Source: a virus
Lineage: Duplodnaviria; Caudoviricetes
Length of the DNA: 64,000 nucleotides
Strand: one strand, 5' to 3'
IMG/VR virus record: IMGVR_UViG_3300037067_003527
Location: 1 to 64,000 of that record
A program made the position numbers and the translations under genes. The stretch's first letter is position 1. Every line of letters begins with the position of its first letter. Below are positions 1,823-57,496 of the stretch, piece after piece. The notes under the pieces are model-generated. The model was not told the origin of the DNA, searched no databases, and worked only from the letters and a program-made list of their open reading frames with translations.

Positions 1823-3790
1823 TTAAAACAATTTATTTACATTACCTTCTTGATTATTTTTAGTATCAGTATATATAGTTTTACCAATCATAGATAAAAA
1901 AGTATTTTCTGTTATAATAGAAATACCTAATTCAATTGCTTTTTTATTTTTAGATGTACCTGTAGACGTATCATTAGTAATTAAATAATTCAATTTTTTA
2001 GATACACCTGTTTTATATTCTCCTCCATATTGTTTTATTATATTTATTGCTTCTTCTCTACTATATAATAATAAATCACCCGTTATACAAAATGACATAC
2101 CTTCTAATATATTTGAAATTTTTTCTGCTTTCTTAATAGTAATAAATTTAAAAAGAGATTTAATAATGTTATTATATTGTAATATTTGATTCATAATTAA
2201 CGATGCTGTATTAGGATTAGAATAACATTGTAAATCAACATATGTATTATTTGTTATTATATTATATGTTTCATTTTCTCCATAAAAATCAATCATTTTA
2301 TTAACATTCATATCACCAAACAAATCTAAACCTAACGATATTAAAAAAATTGATAATGTAGTATTAGTTTTTTCTTTTAATTGTTTTAAAAAATCATTAG
2401 ATATTTTTTCACCAAATCCAGGTATAGTATAAATATCTTCTTGTTGTAATTCAAAAATATCTATTATATTTCGAATTCTATCATATTCATATAATAATTC
2501 AACAAATCTTTCCCCTATATTTTCAACACCTAATACTTCCAAAAAATAATATATAGAAGATATTACACGGTCTTTACACTTTAAATTATCACATATAATA
2601 TATGTATCTTCTTTTTTAGTTACATTACCGCAACTAGGACATAGGGTTGGATATGAAATAAAATTATTATTACTTCTACTAATTACTGATGTTATTTTAG
2701 GTATTATATCACCTTTTCTTTCTATAATTACATTATCACCAATAGATAATCCACCTAATACATCTGTAATATAATTATAATTATGTAATGTTGCTTTAGT
2801 TATTATTGCGCCATCTATTTCAACTGGTGTAATAATTGCTTTAGGGTTAATTCTTCCTGTTCTAGTTACATTCCATTCTACATCTTGTAATATCGAAATC
2901 GCTTGTTTAGAAGGAAATTTTAATGCAATTTCTCCTTTAGGTCTATTATTAACAATTCCTTGTTTTTTACGAATGTATAAATCATTAATTTTAATAACAA
3001 GACCATCTATATCATATGATAAATTTATACGTTTATTATCTATATAATTATTATATATTTTTTCAATTTCTTCTATTGTGTTACATATTGTACTTGTAGT
3101 ATACATCATTGAAATACAATATTCATTTAAATTATGTAAATGTTCAATATCAGTTTGATATTGATAGAATAATGTAGAATCATACATTATAAACATTAAT
3201 TCATTACAAAATCTACCCGACGTATTTCTAACGATACCAGAGGTAGCATTACGTAATGTTGTAAACGGTTTATTATTTTCTTTATTTAATATTAAATTTA
3301 TTTTTTCGAATGATTCTTTACAAAGAAATATTTCACCTCTAATAGTAATAGATTCAGTATACCTTATTTCTTTTGCTATATTTTGTATATTAATAATATT
3401 TTTATATACATCTTCTCCTATTTCTCCATTTCCTCTTGTTATTGCTCGAACTAATTTTCCATTTTCATAATCTAAAGAAATAGATATACCGTCAATTTTC
3501 TCTTGTACTATTATTTGATGTGATGAATAATTATCATACCAATCTTTTAATTCTTCTATATTTTTTGCTTTATTTTGACTACCCATAAAAATAGAATGTT
3601 TATGTTTTTTCCATTCTTTTGTACTAGGTATATTTGTTCCTATTTTAACAAATAATTCATGATTGGGATTAATATCATATAATTGTTGTTTTATAGAATC
3701 ATAAACATCATCATCTACAATTGAGGTACCGTTATAATAAGATTCATTATATTGTTGTATTAAATTGATTATTTCTTTTTCAGTCAACAT
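1823..3790 (-). CDS. ligA: NAD-dependent DNA ligase
   Basis: YYNG...DDVYD N-terminus, EKIDG adenylation motif, TRGNGEIGEDV, DGLVIK, ATLHN, Cys zinc finger (CPSC...C...C), HhH region, C-terminal BRCT (FCITG...GG...VSKKLNYLI). Confidence 0.97.
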   Translation of the reverse strand: MLTEKEIINLIQQYNESYYNGTSIVDDDVYDSIKQQLYDINPNHELFVKIGTNIPSTKEWKKHKHSIFMGSQNKAKNIEELKDWYDNYSSHQIIVQEKIDGISISLDYENGKLVRAITRGNGEIGEDVYKNIINIQNIAKEIRYTESITIRGEIFLCKESFEKINLILNKENNKPFTTLRNATSGIVRNTSGRFCNELMFIMYDSTLFYQYQTDIEHLHNLNEYCISMMYTTSTICNTIEEIEKIYNNYIDNKRINLSYDIDGLVIKINDLYIRKKQGIVNNRPKGEIALKFPSKQAISILQDVEWNVTRTGRINPKAIITPVEIDGAIITKATLHNYNYITDVLGGLSIGDNVIIERKGDIIPKITSVISRSNNNFISYPTLCPSCGNVTKKEDTYIICDNLKCKDRVISSIYYFLEVLGVENIGERFVELLYEYDRIRNIIDIFELQQEDIYTIPGFGEKISNDFLKQLKEKTNTTLSIFLISLGLDLFGDMNVNKMIDFYGENETYNIITNNTYVDLQCYSNPNTASLIMNQILQYNNIIKSLFKFITIKKAEKISNILEGMSFCITGDLLLYSREEAINIIKQYGGEYKTGVSKKLNYLITNDTSTGTSKNKKAIELGISIITENTFLSMIGKTIYTDTKNNQEGNVNKLF

Positions 3791-4148: not shown

Positions 4149-5810
4149 ATGGCAAATGCTATACCATCAGTTAATATAACAGAAGTAAGTATAAAATCAA
4201 ATGTTGTAAATGAAGCTACAGGTGTTGTAGCATATGTATTAGAATGTGAAAAAGGTAGATTAGATGATTTTATAGATATTGCAACAGATAAAGAATTTAT
4301 AGATACATGTGGTGCTCCAACTACAACAACATTAGCACAACACTATGAAATATGTAAGAGTTTTTTAAGTTATGGTAATCAATTAAAAATAAGAAGAGTT
4401 GTTAATGAAGATACCGCTAAATTAGGACGTATTGGTATTATTGGTGCTAATCAAAGTCAATCAGGTTGGAGTGGTGATGCAATTAATCAAACAGGTAATG
4501 AAATATTTTTTAAAACTTCAGTAGAACATACTGTCGATACTGGATTTGATTTAGAATTTTTTGCACAATCACCATATGATAATATAGATTTACAAATAGC
4601 AATGTGTAAACCAGTTGTATCTAATTGGGCTGCTGATGTTCAAACATATGATGGTACTAATAAATTTTCTGATGTGTTTGAATTTGGTCCAGATTCTTCT
4701 AAAAAAGAAGTTGCTATTATGGTGTTTGATGGTGATGGAAATATATTAGAACAATTTATTGTATCTTTAGAAGAAGGATATAAAAATTCATTTAATGAAA
4801 ATGAATATATTACTGATTATTTAAATGCTAAATCTTCATATATTTGGGGATATGCTGAAACTGGTGCATATGACAACATTGAAACATTTGAACAAATTTC
4901 TCTATTAGATGGTGCAAGAGGTGATTCACCTACTTTATTAGAAGTAACAAATGCATATGCAGAATTTATTAATAAAGATGCTGTTACTTTTGATTATATT
5001 TTAGATGGTATGAATTATTTAAATAGAACTCAAATAATTAATGACATAGTAGAAATAAGAAAAGATTCTGTTGCAATTATAGGTTGTAAATATACAGATA
5101 TTTTCAACGGTACTATACCTATATCAAGCAACACTACTATTAAAGAAAATATTATAACTGATATTTCTGCACTACCATATTCTTCATGGGCTGTATATTA
5201 TGCTAACTGGCATGAAAAATATAACGTTTATTTAGATAAAAGAATATGGGTTCCTATTGTTGGTGATATTGCTGGTAATAAGGTGAATTTAAATACTAAT
5301 GCATATGAATGGACTCCTAATGCTGGAACAAATAATGCTATTTTACGTACAGTGTCTAAAATAGCGTGGAACCCAACAGAGTCGCAACAAAACGATTTAT
5401 ATAAATATGCTGCAAATGTTGTTATAAGTAAACGTGGAAAAGGTATTTGTCCTTGGACACAAAAAACTATGACTAATGAAAATATTGGTGTAAGTAGATG
5501 GAATATAAGAGAATTATTTAGAAAAATTGAAATTAATATTGGAAGTATAGCAGAAGATTATATACACGAATTTAATGATTCAATTTCAAGAAATAATTTT
5601 ATTGCTAGATGTACTCCGATATTAGACGATATGGTACAAAAACGAGGTATAGTAGATTATTTAATTCAAGATTTAACTACTGATAATGATGTAGATAACT
5701 ATACAGCCTTATTTGTATTTTATATAAAAGGAAATAAACCCATTGAAAATATGACATTGAAATTTTATGATACTCCTGTTGGTATCTCTTTCGATGAAGT
5801 TATTGGTTAA
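4149..5810 (+). CDS. Tail sheath protein (T4 gp18-like)
   Basis: P(S)VNITE start, FLSYGNQLKIRRV, GDIAG, WTPNAG, WTQKT, NIRELF, HEFND, RGIVDY: sheath motifs. Confidence 0.93.
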   Translation: MANAIPSVNITEVSIKSNVVNEATGVVAYVLECEKGRLDDFIDIATDKEFIDTCGAPTTTTLAQHYEICKSFLSYGNQLKIRRVVNEDTAKLGRIGIIGANQSQSGWSGDAINQTGNEIFFKTSVEHTVDTGFDLEFFAQSPYDNIDLQIAMCKPVVSNWAADVQTYDGTNKFSDVFEFGPDSSKKEVAIMVFDGDGNILEQFIVSLEEGYKNSFNENEYITDYLNAKSSYIWGYAETGAYDNIETFEQISLLDGARGDSPTLLEVTNAYAEFINKDAVTFDYILDGMNYLNRTQIINDIVEIRKDSVAIIGCKYTDIFNGTIPISSNTTIKENIITDISALPYSSWAVYYANWHEKYNVYLDKRIWVPIVGDIAGNKVNLNTNAYEWTPNAGTNNAILRTVSKIAWNPTESQQNDLYKYAANVVISKRGKGICPWTQKTMTNENIGVSRWNIRELFRKIEINIGSIAEDYIHEFNDSISRNNFIARCTPILDDMVQKRGIVDYLIQDLTTDNDVDNYTALFVFYIKGNKPIENMTLKFYDTPVGISFDEVIG

Positions 5811-5839: not shown

Positions 5840-6367
5840 ATGCCTAATATTGACGATTATAAAGCTAAATTTGGATATGGTAATAGAAAAAACCTATACA
5901 ACATTTTATTTACATTACCTACTATTATAAAAAATATACAAGCTGAAGAACATTTTAACGGCATGGTTCAAGAGGTTGCCATGCCGTGGGCTAGGGAAAT
6001 AGAAACAGAAACTATTAATGTTGCTGGTGATTATTTTAATGTAGCTAAAGATAAAAACGCAGAAGAAGATATTACTGTTAAATTTAGAGATACAGAAAAT
6101 TTAATATTACGTAATATTATAGAATTATGGATAGATGTTATACAACAAGATATAACGGGTGTTCGTACAATACCCGATGAATATAAATCACCATATTTTA
6201 TAGTTGAACAATTAAATCATTTAAAAGAAGTAACAAGACGTGTTCAAATTATAGGAGCCTTTCCTCAAAAAATGGATAGAATAGAATATAATATGTCCGA
6301 AGGTGGAATATCTGAATGTAGTATTGTTATGAAAATTGATGCACATAAAATTTTACCGTTAACATAA
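5840..6367 (+). CDS. Tail tube protein (T4 gp19-like)
   Basis: 175 aa directly after the sheath; RKNLY, FRDTENLILRNIIELW, VEQL, GAFP. Confidence 0.88.
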   Translation: MPNIDDYKAKFGYGNRKNLYNILFTLPTIIKNIQAEEHFNGMVQEVAMPWAREIETETINVAGDYFNVAKDKNAEEDITVKFRDTENLILRNIIELWIDVIQQDITGVRTIPDEYKSPYFIVEQLNHLKEVTRRVQIIGAFPQKMDRIEYNMSEGGISECSIVMKIDAHKILPLT

Positions 6368-6382
6368 AAATAAAAGGAAAGT

Positions 6383-7327
6383 ATGGCGTTATTAAATAAT
6401 ATACAAACAAATGTTGAAAACGCTCTTACTGGAATTCATGATGGTGTTAAAAGTACATCTGTATATAAAGCTGCAGTAAGTATAGCAGGACAATCATTAC
6501 CAGAAGACCATCAATCAACTATTGATAGATTTAAAACTGCATATGGTACTGGATTTAAATCAAATTTATTTTTAGTTAAATTTAATTTTTTAAATACCAG
6601 TACAAAAAGCGTATTATATAAAATAATGAATTCATCTAAAAACATAAAATTATTTGATTTTAATTTAAATTCATTAGGATCACAAAGTGCTATACGTCAT
6701 AGTTATGGTATATGGTATGGTTTATGTACTGGTTTTCAATTACCAGAATTAGGTTTAGAATCATCTGAAGAAATAGATAGATATAAAACAGTTGCTACTA
6801 GAAAAACAAGAGGGTCAATAAACGCTTCTTTTTTAGACGATCAATGGAATAATAATAGAGAATTTTGGAGATTATACATTGATAATATAGAAAATTATGG
6901 TAAAATGATGTATCCTCAAAATTATTATTTTAATGTAGAACTTACTATTATGACACCATATGATAATGTATTAACAAAATATACATTTGTTAATTGTTAC
7001 GCAACTAAAGTACCTGATCAAAATTTATCATATGATAGTAAAACTGAATCTGGATTTTCAATTGATATTAAGTATACTACATATTATAAAACAAATGCAA
7101 CCATAGTTACTACAAATATATTAGGTGTTAAATCTATACCAGAAGAATTAGCAAAAGTTGGTTTATTAATTGGCGAAAGAGTTATTAATAATTTTATATC
7201 ACCATATTTGAGTAAACTAATTCAAGATGATATTAAAGAAAAAATTAATAATAAACTTGGAATGCAAGCATTAACATTAGCAGATAATAAAGAAGTTGAA
7301 GAATTTATAGCGTCAAGAAAAATATAA
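6383..7327 (+). CDS. Tail tube initiator / second tube paralog (gp54-like)
   Basis: Tube-fold motifs (KSNLFLV, FLDDQ, YPQNY, YTFVNCY) and synteny. Confidence 0.65.
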   Translation: MALLNNIQTNVENALTGIHDGVKSTSVYKAAVSIAGQSLPEDHQSTIDRFKTAYGTGFKSNLFLVKFNFLNTSTKSVLYKIMNSSKNIKLFDFNLNSLGSQSAIRHSYGIWYGLCTGFQLPELGLESSEEIDRYKTVATRKTRGSINASFLDDQWNNNREFWRLYIDNIENYGKMMYPQNYYFNVELTIMTPYDNVLTKYTFVNCYATKVPDQNLSYDSKTESGFSIDIKYTTYYKTNATIVTTNILGVKSIPEELAKVGLLIGERVINNFISPYLSKLIQDDIKEKINNKLGMQALTLADNKEVEEFIASRKI

Positions 7328-7330
7328 ATA
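7323..7330 (+). promoter_or_regulatory. T4-type late promoter
   Basis: TATAAATA(ATA) immediately upstream of the RBS of 7358. Confidence 0.6.
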
Positions 7331-7357
7331 ATAGGTAATATTTTTAAGGAGTTTATA

Positions 7358-8074
7358 ATGTCAAATTTACCTCAATTACAACATAAATATCATATCACAT
7401 ATTTAGCGGATACAAACGCTGAAATTAGATTTAGACCTTTTACTGTTGGTCAACAAAAACAAATTATGTTGATAAAAAATGAAAAGAAAAAAGATGTTGA
7501 TGTATATAAAGCTATTATACAGATGATACAAGATTGTATACAAGGTAAAATTGTTATTGAAGAGTTATATCCAGCGGTATTTGAAAAATTATATTATGAC
7601 ATAAAAACAATATCAAATGGTAATAAGGTTGAATTTAAATGTAAATGTCCTCATTGTAAAGAAGAACATGAATACATTATAGACACTCAAAAAGATTTAA
7701 TTATAAATAATCCAAAATATGAATTATTAGTTGACATATCAAAAGAAGAACAGATAAAAGCAAAATTTATACATGTAAATATTAAAAATTTAATGACAAT
7801 TGAAAATAAGAAATATAAATCTGATGAGTATAAAACTCTTGATACTATAGCATATTGTTTACATGCGGTGTATGTTAAAGATAAAGTAATTACAGAATTT
7901 ACACATGAAGAAGCAGTTGAATTTATAGATAATATTGAAGAAGGTACATTTAAAACAATTGCAAATTTCTTTGCAAGTATGCCAGCTTTATCAACAACAA
8001 AAGAATTTGAATGTGAATCATGCAAAAAGAAATTTACATTAACAGAAGAAGAGGTACGAGGTTTTTTATCCTAA
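7358..8074 (+). CDS. Baseplate hub assembly protein (T4 gp26/gp51 family); probable tail-assembly chaperone, short form
   Basis: LP...IRFRPFTVGQQK, SNG, CPHC and CESC zinc-ribbon pairs, FFASMP. Confidence 0.85.
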   Translation: MSNLPQLQHKYHITYLADTNAEIRFRPFTVGQQKQIMLIKNEKKKDVDVYKAIIQMIQDCIQGKIVIEELYPAVFEKLYYDIKTISNGNKVEFKCKCPHCKEEHEYIIDTQKDLIINNPKYELLVDISKEEQIKAKFIHVNIKNLMTIENKKYKSDEYKTLDTIAYCLHAVYVKDKVITEFTHEEAVEFIDNIEEGTFKTIANFFASMPALSTTKEFECESCKKKFTLTEEEVRGFLS

Positions 8075-8126
8075 CTGCATCCGGTTTTGACTTTGAAACA
8101 TACTATCAAATTGAATATCGGATGCA
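8062..8126 (+). promoter_or_regulatory. Predicted programmed -1 ribosomal frameshift signal (slippery heptamer plus stem-loop)
   Basis: In-frame T_TTT_TTA at 8062-8068, 7-nt spacer, then stem 8076-8096 pairing with 8106-8126 (TGCATCCG/CGGATGCA base, 18 of 21 pairs including one G-U). Confidence 0.8.
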
Positions 8127-8286
8127 TAAAGATATTGGTTATTCTATAGATGAGTTTGAAAATATGATACCATACGAAGTAATAATTCGTTTAGGATTAC
8201 ATAAAGAACGAGTTGAACAAGAAGAACAAATACAATCTCAATATAGAAAAGAAATTGATAGAGCAATGAGTAAAGTTAAAATATAA
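8068..8286 (+). CDS. gp51-like small hub-assembly ORF; probably the -1 frame extension of 7358..8074
   Basis: YYQIEYRM...YSIDEFENMIPYE motif; -1 frame relative to the upstream gene; the track start ATG 8020 has no RBS. Confidence 0.75.
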   Translation: MLTASGFDFETYYQIEYRMHKDIGYSIDEFENMIPYEVIIRLGLHKERVEQEEQIQSQYRKEIDRAMSKVKI

Positions 8287-8297
8287 GGCTGTTATAA

Positions 8298-10571
8298 ATG
8301 GATGAGGTACAAAAACAAAATCAACAAACAACATTACGCCTTGTAGATGTTGTAAATAAATTAAATAAAAAAATAGATGGTAAAACCTCACCAACAGAAA
8401 AACAAAAATTAGATTATCTTAAATCTATCAATGATAATTTACAACAACAAATAATTGAAGACAGAGAATGGAGACAAGACCAATCTCAACAAGTATCATC
8501 TAGTACTAAAAAAGGTCCTTTAGGATTTGCGTCTAGTCTTAAAATGCCTAAATTTACTCCAGTACAATCTGCATATGTTGGTGTGTTATCTTTTTTAACT
8601 AATGCGGGAAAGGGTGCTGTTGATTTAATAACAGCACCGTTTAGAGGTATATTAGAAGATATATCTACTGTAGTTGAAGGTATATTATCATTTTTTAAAA
8701 ATTTAATAACTAATATTATAAATGCTGTTGTTAATGTTGTATCAAATGCATTAAAAATTGTTAAATCTTTATTTGAAACTGTTGGTGCTGGTATACGTGC
8801 GTTATTAACTGGTATTGGACAAGGATTAATGGCATTTATTCCATTTCTAACATTTTTAATGAATCCTCTTGCAATGGCAGCATTAGCTGTATTTACCGTT
8901 AGTATAATAGGATTAGCAGCAGCACTCAAAATAGCGGAAAAACCATTAATAGCATTTGCTAATGTTATAGGTAATGTATTAGTTACTGCAATCACTGCTA
9001 TATCAAATGTTATAATTAAATTAATAGAAACATTTCCTATGATTATAACTGCTTTTTCTACTCTTAAATTAGAAAATATTGGTGCTATGTTAGCACTAGC
9101 TGCAGCATTACCTGTTTTAACAATGTCATTATTAACATTTGGTCCAGCATTAGCATTAGTATCATTACTATTTTCTAAATTTTCAAAAGTATTAACTAAT
9201 GCTATGCCAACAGAAGGAACTGATTTTTCAAAAATACCTTTAATGAATACTATTATACCTCAACTTATAAAATTAACTATCAATATTTCCTTGCTAGTTG
9301 GATCATTAATAATGTTAACACCATTACTTGGGTTTGCAACAATACTTGCACCATTAATAACTATTGGGTTTGCAACATTATTTTTAGGTATTCATGCATT
9401 AATGAAAGGTATTTATGATGTATTAAAATCCCCTTATTTCATTACGCCAACAGACGCAACTACATTTAATAGTACCTCAATAGCATTAATAAGTATTTTA
9501 AAATCATTAAAAAATATTGTAGCAAATACAATATCAACAGGTGTATTTGGTTTGATTGGTGCTTTTTTAGGTGGTACTCCACTATCTAGATTAACAGCAA
9601 CTTCTAAATTATTTCCTGCTATTAGAGAAATAATAGTATCATTTAATGCAAATCTTTCTAATATTACCCTTAAAGGTAATTATAATCAATTTGGTGTTGC
9701 TATGGAATCATTAGGTAAAGTATTCAAAGCATTACATACCATGATTAGATTTACTCAAGGTGGAGTATTAGGAGATATATCTAAATTTTTAGGTGGAGAT
9801 ACTAAAACTCAATTACAACAATTACCACAATATTTTCCTTTAATAAAAGATGTATTAATATCAGTAGAAAAAGAATTTACTGGATTATCTCTTAATAGTG
9901 CTTTATTTGAATCATTAGGTGTTGCATTAGAAGGATTAGGAAAAGTATTTGATGGTCTTAAAAAAATGTTTACATATGTTTCTGGTGGTGGGTTTTTTGG
10001 AGCATTAGGTACGTTTTTTAGTGGAGATAAAAGAAATCAATTACGTCAACTACCTAAATTATTTCCAGATATTAAAACAATATTAGATTCAATTGTTTCT
10101 AATTTAGGGTCTGGCACAATATCAGATACTCAAGTAAAAAATTTGGAACAGATTTCAACATTTATCAACAAAACAAAAACTATAGTAACTGATTTAATAG
10201 AAATGGATAAACAAGCACAAGGTAATTTTAAAAATATAGCAAATAATGTTTCTCAAGGTATATTATTATTTTTAGATACTCTTAGTAATACAAAAATGTT
10301 GAATTCTGTTGAAGCAAATTTAAATAGATTTGAAGGTGTAATAGATAGAGTTGGTAAACTTACTACTAATATGAAAGGTGGAATGACTATTACACAAAAG
10401 GGTGAATTGTCTATAGATACTAATGCTAAATTAATATCAGAATCAAATGAATGGTTAGCATTGATTGCAAAAATATTATTAGAAAAACCTAGTGGGGTTA
10501 ATCAAATTGATGGTAAGTCTATCACTACTATAATAAATAATAAAATAACTAAACCACAATATATATCATAA
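8298..10571 (+). CDS. Tape measure protein (gp29-like position)
   Basis: 757 aa Ala/Gly/Leu-rich amphipathic and hydrophobic protein with internal repeats, between the chaperone and gp48-like genes. Confidence 0.8.
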   Translation: MDEVQKQNQQTTLRLVDVVNKLNKKIDGKTSPTEKQKLDYLKSINDNLQQQIIEDREWRQDQSQQVSSSTKKGPLGFASSLKMPKFTPVQSAYVGVLSFLTNAGKGAVDLITAPFRGILEDISTVVEGILSFFKNLITNIINAVVNVVSNALKIVKSLFETVGAGIRALLTGIGQGLMAFIPFLTFLMNPLAMAALAVFTVSIIGLAAALKIAEKPLIAFANVIGNVLVTAITAISNVIIKLIETFPMIITAFSTLKLENIGAMLALAAALPVLTMSLLTFGPALALVSLLFSKFSKVLTNAMPTEGTDFSKIPLMNTIIPQLIKLTINISLLVGSLIMLTPLLGFATILAPLITIGFATLFLGIHALMKGIYDVLKSPYFITPTDATTFNSTSIALISILKSLKNIVANTISTGVFGLIGAFLGGTPLSRLTATSKLFPAIREIIVSFNANLSNITLKGNYNQFGVAMESLGKVFKALHTMIRFTQGGVLGDISKFLGGDTKTQLQQLPQYFPLIKDVLISVEKEFTGLSLNSALFESLGVALEGLGKVFDGLKKMFTYVSGGGFFGALGTFFSGDKRNQLRQLPKLFPDIKTILDSIVSNLGSGTISDTQVKNLEQISTFINKTKTIVTDLIEMDKQAQGNFKNIANNVSQGILLFLDTLSNTKMLNSVEANLNRFEGVIDRVGKLTTNMKGGMTITQKGELSIDTNAKLISESNEWLALIAKILLEKPSGVNQIDGKSITTIINNKITKPQYIS

Positions 10572-10579
10572 GGTAACAT

Positions 10580-11617
10580 ATGGCATTAACAATTTTAACA
10601 TATCCAAATAATAGAACAGGTTCTTATGATAAAAATTTTTCAAATAACGACTTAATAAATTTAGAAGAAAATGAAACTATTATATTTCAACCTAAATATT
10701 TTAACAAATTACAATCCGTAGGTAGTTCAGTTAATCAATTATTAAGTGATGCAAATAATTTAGAATCTAAAAATAAATCTATACAAACAAAATTAGAAAA
10801 TACAGCAAGTAGTGTTAGTAAAACTTTAAATGATACATTAGATGCTCTTGTTTCATCAAAAGAAAGTTTTGTTGACCCAAAACAATTTGAACATGAATTA
10901 TCACCTATTGATGGTGGTTTATATATTGGATTGCCATTAAAACCAGAATTTTTAAAAATAAATGAAAAACATAATTATGAATCAAGCGAATCTTTATCCG
11001 CATCTAAAATAGATTTATTACAAGGAATTCGAAGTTTAATTAAAGGAAATATAGGAGAGGCTGCAAGTAATTTTGTTTCTGCTGGTGCTTCTGCTGGTGT
11101 AAAAAAATTATTAGAAGGATTACAATCCCCATTATCACAATTAGGTGGAAATGTATATAAACCTAAAAGACAAACATACACTGGTTCTGATACTATATCA
11201 TTAAAATTCGATTGGTTGTTATCACCAACAACACCAGAAGAATCTAAAGTTATAAAAAAAATAATATCAGCATTTAGATATTTATCATACCCAAAAGGAA
11301 TACTAAGCGATAATAATAAATATGCATTTTTACGTTCTAACCCAGCTCTTTGGGAAATACAATTTCCTAATAATGGTGCTATGAAAAATATAATATCAGA
11401 AGGAAATAGATTTCCTATTATGGTATGTACTGGAGTAGAAACTAATTTTGGTGATGGTGAATGGTTTAATACATTTGAAGGAAATTTTCCAGTAACAATT
11501 AAATTAAGTATATCCTTTGAAGAATATTTTTCAATATTTGATTCATCTACTCGTTTTGGATACAAAAGTTTATCTGAACTAATGAGTGATATAAATTCTC
11601 AAAAATTTGAGGAATAA
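10580..11617 (+). CDS. Baseplate tail tube cap (gp48-like)
   Basis: LTYP start, FDWLLSPTTPEESKVIKKIISAFRYLSYP, PVTIKLSISFEE. Confidence 0.85.
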   Translation: MALTILTYPNNRTGSYDKNFSNNDLINLEENETIIFQPKYFNKLQSVGSSVNQLLSDANNLESKNKSIQTKLENTASSVSKTLNDTLDALVSSKESFVDPKQFEHELSPIDGGLYIGLPLKPEFLKINEKHNYESSESLSASKIDLLQGIRSLIKGNIGEAASNFVSAGASAGVKKLLEGLQSPLSQLGGNVYKPKRQTYTGSDTISLKFDWLLSPTTPEESKVIKKIISAFRYLSYPKGILSDNNKYAFLRSNPALWEIQFPNNGAMKNIISEGNRFPIMVCTGVETNFGDGEWFNTFEGNFPVTIKLSISFEEYFSIFDSSTRFGYKSLSELMSDINSQKFEE

Positions 11618-54590: not shown

Positions 54591-56222
54591 ATGAGTGTAA
54601 CGTATAATGATTTAATCAAATTTTTTCCTCATCAAAATATAAGGGAAATACAACAACAAGCATTGTATAAATGTGCTGAATTTTTAAATAATGATAAAAA
54701 ATATCTTATTTTAGAATTACCTCCTGGAGTTGGGAAAAGTGCTATAGGTATGACTATAGCACGTTATTTTAAAAATAAAAATAAATCTACATATTATATT
54801 ACACCACAAAAAATATTACAAGATCAATATGCAAATGAATTTAAAGATATAGCAATAATAAAAGGTAAAAAAAATTATAGATGTCTACATGATCCATTTT
54901 TAACTTGTGATTATGGAGCATGTGAAAAATCATCTAAACAATTAATAAAACCAGAACTTACATATGATACAGATAATAAAGAAAATAATATAAAAAATAA
55001 AAAATCTAAACAAAAATGTATTAATTGTCCATATAAAATAGCAGTAGAAGATGCTTTTAATTCATCAATATCATTATTTAATTTTGATGGTTATTATTTA
55101 CATACAAATTTTTCAAAATTTTCTTCTCAAGAAAGAAATTTATTAATAATAGATGAATGTCATAAAATAGAAAATAAAATGATTAATTTATATTCATTAT
55201 CTTTATCTAAAAAAGAACATTCTGATTTACCTGAATATAAAAATATACATCAATATCAACCATATTTAATTAAACTAAGAATGATGTTGGAACAAAATAT
55301 TAATGATAATAATCAACAATTAAATCTTGTTACTATAGATAATACATTATTAGATAGACTATTAAAAGAAAGAGATAAAAATATAGACAAGATTTCAAAA
55401 ATAGAAAAAATACTAAATAATATAGAACATGACTGGGTAATAAATACTGAGTATAATTTTGATAAAACATTTAAAGGAATAGAAATAAAAAAATTATACG
55501 TTAATGATGTTATACCGTCTTATATATTTAAAAAGACACCTAAAATTATTTTAATGTCAGCAACTATTATTAATCCAAAAGAATTTTGTACATATAATGG
55601 AATACCGTATAACTCTGCAATGTATTTTAATGCGGGTTCTCCATTTAATATTAATAATAGAAAGATATATATAATAGGTAGCGGATCAATGTCTATGAAA
55701 AATTTTGATTTTTCTAAAAAAATGTTGGTAGAAGATATTAAAAGAATTATTAATCATCATAAAAATGATAGAGGTATTATACACACATACTCTAATAAAA
55801 TAGCAAACTTTATTAGAGATACTATTATTGATGATAGAATTATAGTAAAAGATGATAAACATTCTATAGAATATTGTTTGAATAAATTAAAAGAATCTAA
55901 AAATGGTATTATAGTTGGGTCTGCTATGGAAGAAGGGTTAGATTTAAAAGATGATTTATCTAGATTTCAAATAATTTCAAAAATACCATACCCTAATTTA
56001 GGTGATAATCAAATACGTATTCGTAAAGATAATGATAAAGAATATTATCAATATTTAACAATATTAACATTATGTCAAGCATATGGACGTTCAATTCGTA
56101 CACATACTGATTATGCTAATACATATATATTAGATAGTGATTTTAGTAGACTAACAAGAAATTGTATGCCTAAATGGTTTAATGAAGCAATAACTTTAGA
56201 TAGTAGTTTTTTATACACATGA
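54591..56222 (+). CDS. DinG/Rad3/XPD-family helicase
   Basis: Q motif (REIQ), PPGVGKS, Cys cluster ending CPY, DECH, MSAT, EGLDLKDD, QAYGRSIR. Confidence 0.92.
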   Translation: MSVTYNDLIKFFPHQNIREIQQQALYKCAEFLNNDKKYLILELPPGVGKSAIGMTIARYFKNKNKSTYYITPQKILQDQYANEFKDIAIIKGKKNYRCLHDPFLTCDYGACEKSSKQLIKPELTYDTDNKENNIKNKKSKQKCINCPYKIAVEDAFNSSISLFNFDGYYLHTNFSKFSSQERNLLIIDECHKIENKMINLYSLSLSKKEHSDLPEYKNIHQYQPYLIKLRMMLEQNINDNNQQLNLVTIDNTLLDRLLKERDKNIDKISKIEKILNNIEHDWVINTEYNFDKTFKGIEIKKLYVNDVIPSYIFKKTPKIILMSATIINPKEFCTYNGIPYNSAMYFNAGSPFNINNRKIYIIGSGSMSMKNFDFSKKMLVEDIKRIINHHKNDRGIIHTYSNKIANFIRDTIIDDRIIVKDDKHSIEYCLNKLKESKNGIIVGSAMEEGLDLKDDLSRFQIISKIPYPNLGDNQIRIRKDNDKEYYQYLTILTLCQAYGRSIRTHTDYANTYILDSDFSRLTRNCMPKWFNEAITLDSSFLYT

Positions 56223-57496
56223 CAAAAAATTTATTAAATAATAACAAATATTCCGCTCTTGGTATAATGGAAGGTGTTAGTGGTTTTGGTAAATGTGTGT
56301 CTAGTGTATTTAATACTATAAACGGTATTAGATATACTAAAACTACATCTAAAGAAATTATTTTAAAACAAAAAGTAGAACAATATATTATAGATGAATA
56401 CATCAAAGAATGGGAAAATGAAGAAAAAGAAAAAATAAACAAAAAATTAATACAAAAAAATAAATCAAAATCATTATCACATAACGGTACACGAAGATTT
56501 TCATTATATAAAATTTTAGAATTATTAAAAATCATATCAGATACTGATATGATAATATTGTTATTCATTTATTTCAATAAACCATCATTACAATCAACTA
56601 AAAAATTATTACATACAATACCATATTCAACAATTCAAAAATCATTTAAAAAATTACAAAAATTAAATTTAATAGAAAAACAAAATACTAATTTTTCAAT
56701 AACACAAAAAATATTTAACTATCTAAAATCAAATTCATCTGAACCGAGTGTATTAATATCAAATAATGATGTAATTAATAAAAACAAACAATATATAGAT
56801 ATATTATACTATCAATACTTATGGTTATTACAAGAAGAACAAGAAACAACAATGATAAATTATTCATTATTATATGAAAAAGGTATAACTAAAACAAGAC
56901 TAAAAAAATTATCAAAATTAGGAATGATTGAAATAAACTATAAAACACCTATAAATAAATTAGATAAAATAAATTTTCAAGATAAAAATCTTTTCTATAG
57001 AAAACTTAGTTGTAAAACACCAAATATATTCTTTTTTCCAAACTTAACTAATACTACATGTAATATTAAATGTACACCTAAACAAAAAATACATCATATA
57101 CAACAATTTTTTCATGTAGACATTAATACAACTACAACTACTACAACTATTAAATGTTGGAATGAAAAAATATTTAATGAAATAATAAATGATAATTCTT
57201 TAAATATAGACGAAATTGAGTTTAAATATGATAAGAATCTCGTTGTAACAAAAGTAGAAAATAAAATAACTACTTTGCGGAAAAACTTAGCATCTCAAAA
57301 TCAAATTAATTATTTAAAAGGATTATCTTTATTTGATAAACATTGTTACTCTGTTTGTAAGGTAAAAGAGTCGTTAGCAAGAGCTATACGATCTAATGAA
57401 TTAAAAAGAAGATGGATTGTAAATAGAAATCATGAATACGAATTTAATCCAGATCGTATTAATGAATTATTACAATCTAATTTCTTTACAAAATAA
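56219..57496 (+). CDS. Hypothetical basic protein, possible winged-helix DNA-binding domains
   Basis: YSTIQKSFKKLQKLNLIEK and LKKLSKLGMIEI recognition-helix-like segments. Confidence 0.6.
   Translation: MTKNLLNNNKYSALGIMEGVSGFGKCVSSVFNTINGIRYTKTTSKEIILKQKVEQYIIDEYIKEWENEEKEKINKKLIQKNKSKSLSHNGTRRFSLYKILELLKIISDTDMIILLFIYFNKPSLQSTKKLLHTIPYSTIQKSFKKLQKLNLIEKQNTNFSITQKIFNYLKSNSSEPSVLISNNDVINKNKQYIDILYYQYLWLLQEEQETTMINYSLLYEKGITKTRLKKLSKLGMIEINYKTPINKLDKINFQDKNLFYRKLSCKTPNIFFFPNLTNTTCNIKCTPKQKIHHIQQFFHVDINTTTTTTTIKCWNEKIFNEIINDNSLNIDEIEFKYDKNLVVTKVENKITTLRKNLASQNQINYLKGLSLFDKHCYSVCKVKESLARAIRSNELKRRWIVNRNHEYEFNPDRINELLQSNFFTK

Follow-up and report, generated by a model that had tools for sequence, protein, structure and literature searches.

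A probable programmed −1 frameshift as the source of short and long tail assembly chaperones in a divergent Caudoviricetes phage

A conserved −1 frameshift in tail chaperone genes, described for gpG and gpGT of phage lambda (Levin 1993; Xu, Hendrix and Duda 2004; reviewed in PMC5009743), joins two overlapping frames in front of the tape-measure gene by means of a heptamer late in the first frame, giving a short and a long product. A 2016 recoding review describes this G-T frameshifting as conserved in long-tailed phages 'except T4' (PMC5009743). Here, we analyzed positions 7358–8286 of a 64,000-nucleotide stretch of viral DNA (Duplodnaviria; Caudoviricetes; positions 1–64,000 of IMG/VR record IMGVR_UViG_3300037067_003527; hereafter, the window), in which a gene resembling T4 gp26 overlaps a second frame resembling T4 gp51. 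Sequence comparisons indicate that, through a programmed ribosomal −1 frameshift on U_UUU_UUA, this locus of a very AT-rich, uncultured, T4-related phage very probably makes one protein in two lengths. The arrangement is that of lambda (two overlapping frames before the tape-measure gene, a late heptamer, and short and long products), whereas there is no detectable sequence similarity to gpG/gpGT, and the gp26-like protein is about twice as long, with an extra four-Cys zinc ribbon. The lambda heptamer, G_GGA_AAG, is also unlike that of the window.

The core idea of a tail-chaperone frameshift in T4-like phages was very probably already published in 2022. Two later papers cite Vladimirov, Gautam and Davidson (Virology 2022): the PRFect paper (PMC10885494) for some T4-like phages having a short gene and a longer fused gene, with no frameshifting, and a 2025 paper (PMC12846349) where it names poly-T runs, in T4-like genes for TAC-N (the short tail assembly chaperone), 'known -1 frameshift signals'. 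The first-pass annotation of the window was not aware of such a frameshift as an accepted feature of T4-like phages; as these citing passages appear to attribute it to the 2022 paper, that point needs correction. The principle having seemingly been published then, the discovery value of the present locus is modest; what the window adds is a new, divergent case in which UUUUUUA is paired with a strong hairpin. A literature search returned no open paper directly describing a gp26/gp51 frameshift.

The gp26-like open reading frame (ORF; 7358..8074, + strand, 0 frame) has an AAGGAG Shine-Dalgarno sequence ahead of its ATG, encodes 238 aa (TAC-N) and ends in the codons GGT TTT TTA TCC TAA. These codons hold an in-frame slippery heptamer, T_TTT_TTA (8062..8068, + strand), in the X_XXY_YYZ phase and one codon ahead of the stop. 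No stop interrupts the −1 frame between 8017 and 8286. After the slip, this frame begins ILTASGFDFETYYQIEYR and stays open for 72 codons plus a stop (8068..8286, + strand), such that the predicted long form, TAC-NC (7358–8068 joined to 8068–8286, + strand), comprises 309 aa (237 + 72 residues). The ORF that can be annotated in the −1 frame (8020–8286, 88 aa) opens with an ATG at 8020..8022 (+ strand) that is probably fortuitous, and neither this codon nor the in-frame ATG at 8122 is preceded by a Shine-Dalgarno sequence. The in-frame U_UUU_UUA, the −1 phase of a downstream ORF whose ATG at 8020 lacks a ribosome-binding site, and the products of 238 and ~309 aa, all of which had been read from the sequence in the first-pass annotation, were reproduced with the same coordinates, frames and lengths.

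Both frames belong to known families. The 0-frame protein matches PF12322 with 118.2 bits (cut-off 24.5; E 5e-34) over profile positions 3–210 of 219, and phrog_150 at E 5e-35, and the −1 ORF aligns with the phrog_634 profile ('baseplate hub assembly catalyst') over its C-terminal half, at E 4e-10. A read-through of the two window frames (P0151), which is one residue short and has one residue changed at the junction, covers positions 7–275 of the 282 of phrog_150 in one stretch (E 4e-40), where the short form covers 7–227. The same read-through aligns with residues 15–236 of T4 gp51 in a single BLASTP high-scoring segment pair that spans the junction; the long form, with its gp51-type C-terminal module, is therefore colinear with T4 gp51. 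The 118.8-kbp record from which the window derives (estimated 41% complete) contains one PF12322 gene.

To place the junction in its family, 112 loci were examined (80 from IMG/VR, 27 from metagenomes, the cyanophages P-RSM6 and S-SKS1, the Sinorhizobium phage phiM12, the Methylophilales phage Melnitz, and the window), which reduce to 107 unique genes with protein identities down to ~20%. An in-frame T_TTT_TTN, 0–6 nt ahead of the stop, is present in 107/107 unique genes, the last base being C in 102, A in three, and T in two. Thus, the junction alignment that had been proposed as a check of the first annotation, once run, returned a slippery heptamer and the −1 phase throughout. The codon before the heptamer also ends in T in all 107 genes (AGT 39, TCT 31, AAT 27, GCT 7, GGT 3), whereas elsewhere in the same genes the T-ending share is 0.54–0.79 for Ser, Asn, and Gly codons. 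Phe-Phe pairs elsewhere in these genes are mostly TTCTTT. A T that is fixed in front of the heptamer while the encoded amino acid varies is best read as a constraint at the nucleotide level.

The conservation extends past the junction. The −1 extensions of 42 diverse sequences can be aligned without a gap beginning at their first codon, P35 and E37 being invariant, and the extension length among relatives is 42–72 aa. Ahead of the slip site, the −1 frame has a start codon (ATG, GTG, or TTG) in the window only and at 0/106 other unique loci; the signal and its phase are conserved and the second-frame start is not. The first ATG lies 18–32 codons past the slip site, within conserved sequence, in 36/107 loci, an ATG occurs 3–6 codons past it in 69/107 relatives, and almost no locus has a Shine-Dalgarno sequence before its candidate −1 frame starts.

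The window's own lineage was searched for with a HMMER scan of 1.84 billion representatives. The nearest clade (P0002–P0019) shares 30–42% identity with the window protein, and nearly all of its members end in ...FL(S), not in ...FF. DNA is available for three members of this clade, two with TTTTTTA (L088 and L089) and one with TTTTTTC (L090); since L088 and L089 share TTTTTTA, U_UUU_UUA is a clade variant of the signal. In all three, the extension has no start codon upstream and begins I(I/L)(T/A/G)ASG, comparable to ILTASGF in the window. Against any phage in the INPHARED/GenBank phage records, the identity of the window protein is at most 28%, and a DNA search of phage records with the junction gave no match. 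No close IMG/VR relatives were found with the gp26-like protein, the sheath, P0002, or P0004 as queries, and a word-based homologue search returned only the query.

Downstream of the heptamer, an imperfect stem-loop (8076..8126, + strand) is a probable stimulator of the shift. The 76-nt region 8060–8135 folds at −19.5 kcal/mol (z −4.1), and 0/200 dinucleotide shuffles fold as well, which bears out the folding that had been suggested for this region; 8076–8126 folded alone gives −17.6 kcal/mol. The stem starts 7 nt past the heptamer and has a 9-nt loop, as first described, whereas the 21-bp helix of that description did not stand: there are 18 pairs with three single mismatches, and pairing is unbroken only in the lower 10 bp (8076–8085 with 8117–8126), one G-U pair included. 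A landfill contig (run X2, 7759–8228) that differs from the window at a single position (7862) has an identical heptamer and stem. The nearest relatives with DNA share only ~40% protein identity. Hairpins beginning 3–7 nt downstream were found in the window, L088, L089, L090, P-RSM6, phiM12, and S-SKS1 (L001, L004, L007), and across 101 unique loci the structure downstream of the signal has a mean z of −1.70, compared to −0.62 in control regions inside the gene (p 1e-5).

Upstream of the heptamer, two GAGG motifs (8051..8061, + strand; 7 and 0 nt before the heptamer) are a possible second stimulator. Of 99 unique contexts from relatives, 68 have a GGAG or GAGG at most 24 nt before the heptamer, mostly at a distance of 10–11 nt, compared to 10% of control windows, an enrichment that is confounded by conserved LEG codons. 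With regard to the heptamer itself, U_UU.U_UU.Y is among the best −1 heptamers in E. coli, and the U_UUA tetramer is a weak A-site motif there (1.8–3.6x background; PMC4066793); the strong hairpin beside the signal in the window may be present because U_UUA is weak. The same U_UUU_UUA, with a stem-loop past a short spacer, is described for HIV-1 gag-pol (PMC4373837), a eukaryotic and unrelated system to which the likeness is mechanistic only.

T4 provides a described counterpart of the two products. Its gp26 and gp51 are hub or tail assembly factors that are not part of the virion (PMC3004832), and genes 26 and 51 are separate and divergently transcribed. T4 gp51 (249 aa) matches PF12322 over residues 1–201 (E 4e-52), followed by the phrog_634 module, and aligns with gp26 by BLASTP (E 2e-6); T4 therefore has one protein in a short and a long version, each from its own gene of a divergent pair. 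The window shares with T4 a PF12322 short form and a long form made of the same domain with the same C-terminal module, whereas the two systems differ in that T4 has two genes, with gene 26 non-slippery, and the window reaches the extension only via the −1 frame. In T4 gene 26 (L002, 3803–3830, − strand), the terminal ...EFFELL is kept and its Phe-Phe is encoded by the non-slippery TTC TTT. This codon pair is consistent with the slippery site having been lost after a separate, fused gene 51 had come into being.

The pairs of gp26 with a small gp51 in cyanophages and other T4-related phages (P-RSM6, S-SKS1, phiM12, Melnitz, and many IMG/VR contigs) also resemble the window. They have an in-frame T run at the gp26 end and a −1 extension of ~60–70 aa in the same register down to the P..E motif. 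The difference lies in the heptamer, which is almost always U_UUU_UUC in these pairs and U_UUU_UUA, with an FL(S) ending, in the window and its nearest clade. Cyanophage gp51 was reported to have only ~20% of the length of T4 gp51, the first ~200 residues being absent, and this was left unexplained (Sullivan et al. 2010, PMC3037559). The short length would be explained because the extension is reached by a −1 frameshift, and the 50–70-aa 'gp51' stubs noted in cyanophages in that paper would be accounted for.

Structural comparison is suggestive of a chaperone-like N-terminal domain. The AlphaFold2 model of the short form (predicted local distance difference test score, pLDDT, 95.3) was searched against 48,161 PDB chains, and the top four matches all cover residues 1–89/97: YqbN (3klu, Z 7.1), the HK97 tail assembly chaperone (2ob9, Z 7.0, root-mean-square deviation 3.6, 83 residues aligned), 3fgx (Z 6.4), and 5ir0 (Z 5.7), the next best reaching Z 4.5. 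The best chaperone matches, at Z ~7, lie under the caution line of the tool (Z = 8), and the modelled domain would thus resemble the HK97 fold of the lambda/HK97-type chaperones at a level that is suggestive. Foldseek against the PDB gave a probability of only 0.63 for 2ob9 and no significant match for the whole model, and a sequence profile search of the PDB returned no chaperone. ORF12 (3d8l), which we take to be the tail chaperone of lactococcal phage p2, matches at Z 3.0. The gp26-like protein also has two CxxC pairs (Cys 96, 99, 219, and 222) that are ~120 residues apart and hardly vary across the family; the model brings them together in a zinc-ribbon-like part comparable to the LysW and ZitP zinc fingers (Z ~3).

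The suggestion in the first-pass annotation that the gp26-like and gp51-like frames form a G/G-T-type chaperone pair gains support from the signal in 107/107 genes, the colinearity with T4 gp51, and the gene order described below. Under this reading, most ribosomes would translate 7358–8074 into the 238-aa TAC-N, and a minority would slip back one base with tRNA-Phe on UUU in the P site and tRNA-Leu on UUA in the A site. The hairpin 7 nt downstream would probably aid the slip, and the upstream GAGG motifs may do so too. Slipped ribosomes would not encounter the stop at 8072 and would extend the chain by 72 residues read in the −1 frame, yielding the 309-aa TAC-NC, whose predicted architecture matches that of T4 gp51. 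By analogy with lambda G/GT, we infer that many short and few long copies would coat the tape measure protein. The extension would then link the chaperone-tape measure complex to another tail or hub part, a role that, like the binding of the tape measure itself, is modelled on lambda and T4, and neither form would remain in the virion.

Base composition has to be considered before any such signal is accepted. The GC content of the window is 23.4% and TTTTTTA occurs in 171 copies (131 expected), and an in-frame slippery heptamer lies within the last 10 codons of 10/56 + strand ORFs of at least 100 aa. The heptamer alone therefore means little here, and the window on its own is no proof of a signal; the case is carried by the hairpin and, above all, by the relatives. 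One other of these ORFs, the DNA helicase gene (54591–56222, phrog_2488), also has a long −1 ORF behind it: its last codons are AGT TTT TTA TAC ACA TGA, which puts TTTTTTA in frame at 56207, and the −1 ORF (56219–57496, 427 codons) starts at an ordinary ATGA overlap. This heptamer with its −1 ORF is most likely a chance look-alike and serves as a useful negative control. That the pattern at 7358–8286 arose in the same way, with an AT-rich genome placing a T run at a gene end and an overlapping ORF behind it, is hardly credible and already untenable given the comparative data. The pattern is kept in 107/107 unique relatives, including the far less AT-rich cyanophages and a Sinorhizobium phage, and the −1 product shares homology with the C-terminal part of gp51.

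If the two frames were instead separate genes, the gp51-like peptide would be made from the ATG at 8020, from that at 8122, or by termination-reinitiation, and there would be no fusion. Public records annotate the pair in this way, and ATGs are available both in the window and, at 3–6 codons past the slip site, in 69/107 relatives. We consider separate genes very improbable given that neither window ATG has a Shine-Dalgarno sequence, that the ATG at 8020 is unique among the 107 loci, and that initiation at the first ATG would cost 18–32 conserved residues in 36 loci. Residues right after the heptamer are conserved without any preceding start, and two separate genes would leave unexplained the invariant T run, its phase and the preceding wobble T, as well as the gp26-like domain fused ahead in T4 gp51. 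Transcriptional slippage, with the polymerase adding one U in the T6–T7 run, would give the same fusion with no ribosomal shift. In its favour, the T run is homopolymeric, almost the same protein would result, and UUUUUUU is avoided in all frames of E. coli genes, possibly on account of slippage (PMC4066793). This route is nevertheless quite improbable: the run has just six T in 105/107 genes, with the seventh base kept as C or A, and the X_XXY_YYZ phase, the structure 3–7 nt downstream, and the Shine-Dalgarno-like motif 10–11 nt upstream are features of a ribosomal signal. Bacterial transcriptional slippage usually requires longer runs.

Several observations weigh against a programmed ribosomal frameshift as the explanation. 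One marine clade lacks the downstream hairpin, which is frequent in the family without occurring in all of its members. Since the loci are relatives, the counts given above do not represent independent events. A terminal Phe-Phe or Phe-Leu could in part reflect constraint on the protein, and the ATGs near the upstream stop in 69/107 relatives could allow some lineages to re-initiate a small peptide. A second heptamer with a −1 ORF arose, most likely by chance, in the same window, and the fold match at Z ~7 remains below the line of 8. A further counterargument is the weakness of U_UUA, with 1.8–3.6x background in E. coli.

The probable ribosomal frameshift has consequences for annotation. Public records and family libraries, the PHROG names among them, list the two frames separately, as 'baseplate hub subunit' and 'baseplate hub assembly catalyst', so that many phage proteomes lack the long form. 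The correct annotation of the window would be one gene with a −1 frameshift at 8062–8068, and the apparent exception of T4 from the two-form chaperone rule, as worded in PMC5009743, would be removed. It seems rather unlikely that the 2022 paper covers only the two-gene solution of T4 and its close kin and that the remark on it in the Adele paper is a misreading, which would leave the invariant gp26–gp51 frameshift across cyanophages, rhizobiophages, and uncultured lineages unreported. If that were true, the window would add a distinct branch with U_UUU_UUA, a strong hairpin, 23% GC, and the chaperone in its ancestral place before the tape-measure gene, and the comparison would point to a single frameshifted gene as the ancestral state, with duplication and fusion giving rise to the T4 pair.

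The chaperone gene lies within a tail module on the + strand. The order is tail sheath (4149–5810; phrog_23, E 3e-41), tail tube (5840–6367; phrog_45, E 2e-21), a 314-aa tube-like paralogue (6383–7327; phrog_45, E 1.5e-7), the chaperone, a probable tape measure protein (757 aa, 8298..10571), a gp48-like baseplate tail tube cap (10580..11617; PF11091, E 4e-6; phrog_230, E 1e-18), and then baseplate genes. Tail assembly chaperone genes classically lie at this place, between the tube and tape-measure genes, the tape-measure call being based on weak PHROG matches (E ~1e-5), size, and position. The location directly before the tape-measure gene, which had been part of the first annotation, holds to the extent of that call. 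Pfam and NCBIfam returned nothing for the 757-aa protein, and BLASTP showed no similarity between it and T4 gp29. In the window, the chaperone gene abuts the probable tape-measure gene, whereas a small gene lies between the two in phiM12, Melnitz, and S-SKS1.

The position of the tube-like gene upstream of the chaperone is also occupied in relatives. In phiM12, the gene in this place is annotated as tail tube monomer gp19.2, and P-RSM6, Melnitz, and S-SKS1 have a hypothetical gene of 240–296 aa there; the genes at this position lie at 2001–2786 in L004, 4186–4968 in L001, 2577–3467 in L006, and 2003–2725 in L007. The tube-like gene at 6383–7327 and its positional equivalents may be counterparts of the T4 gp54 tube initiator. 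On the − strand, opposite to the tail genes and just upstream of their module, lies a gene for a full-length NAD-dependent DNA ligase (1823–3790; phrog_3869, E 5e-149).

DNA of the tail region was also found in other metagenomes. Sequences near-identical to window positions 6400–9400 occur in contigs of a groundwater metagenome, which is the likely source, and of landfill metagenomes, and two further runs, from a biogas fermenter and from sludge, contain relatives with ~10% divergence over this region; one of the two is an RNA library. One ~10% divergent relative (run X4) stops at 8075, and the contigs of the RNA library (run X7) span 7300–7769 only and give evidence of neither transcription nor slippage. 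Together, these occurrences suggest that the habitat is anaerobic, engineered or subsurface, and that the host is low in GC.

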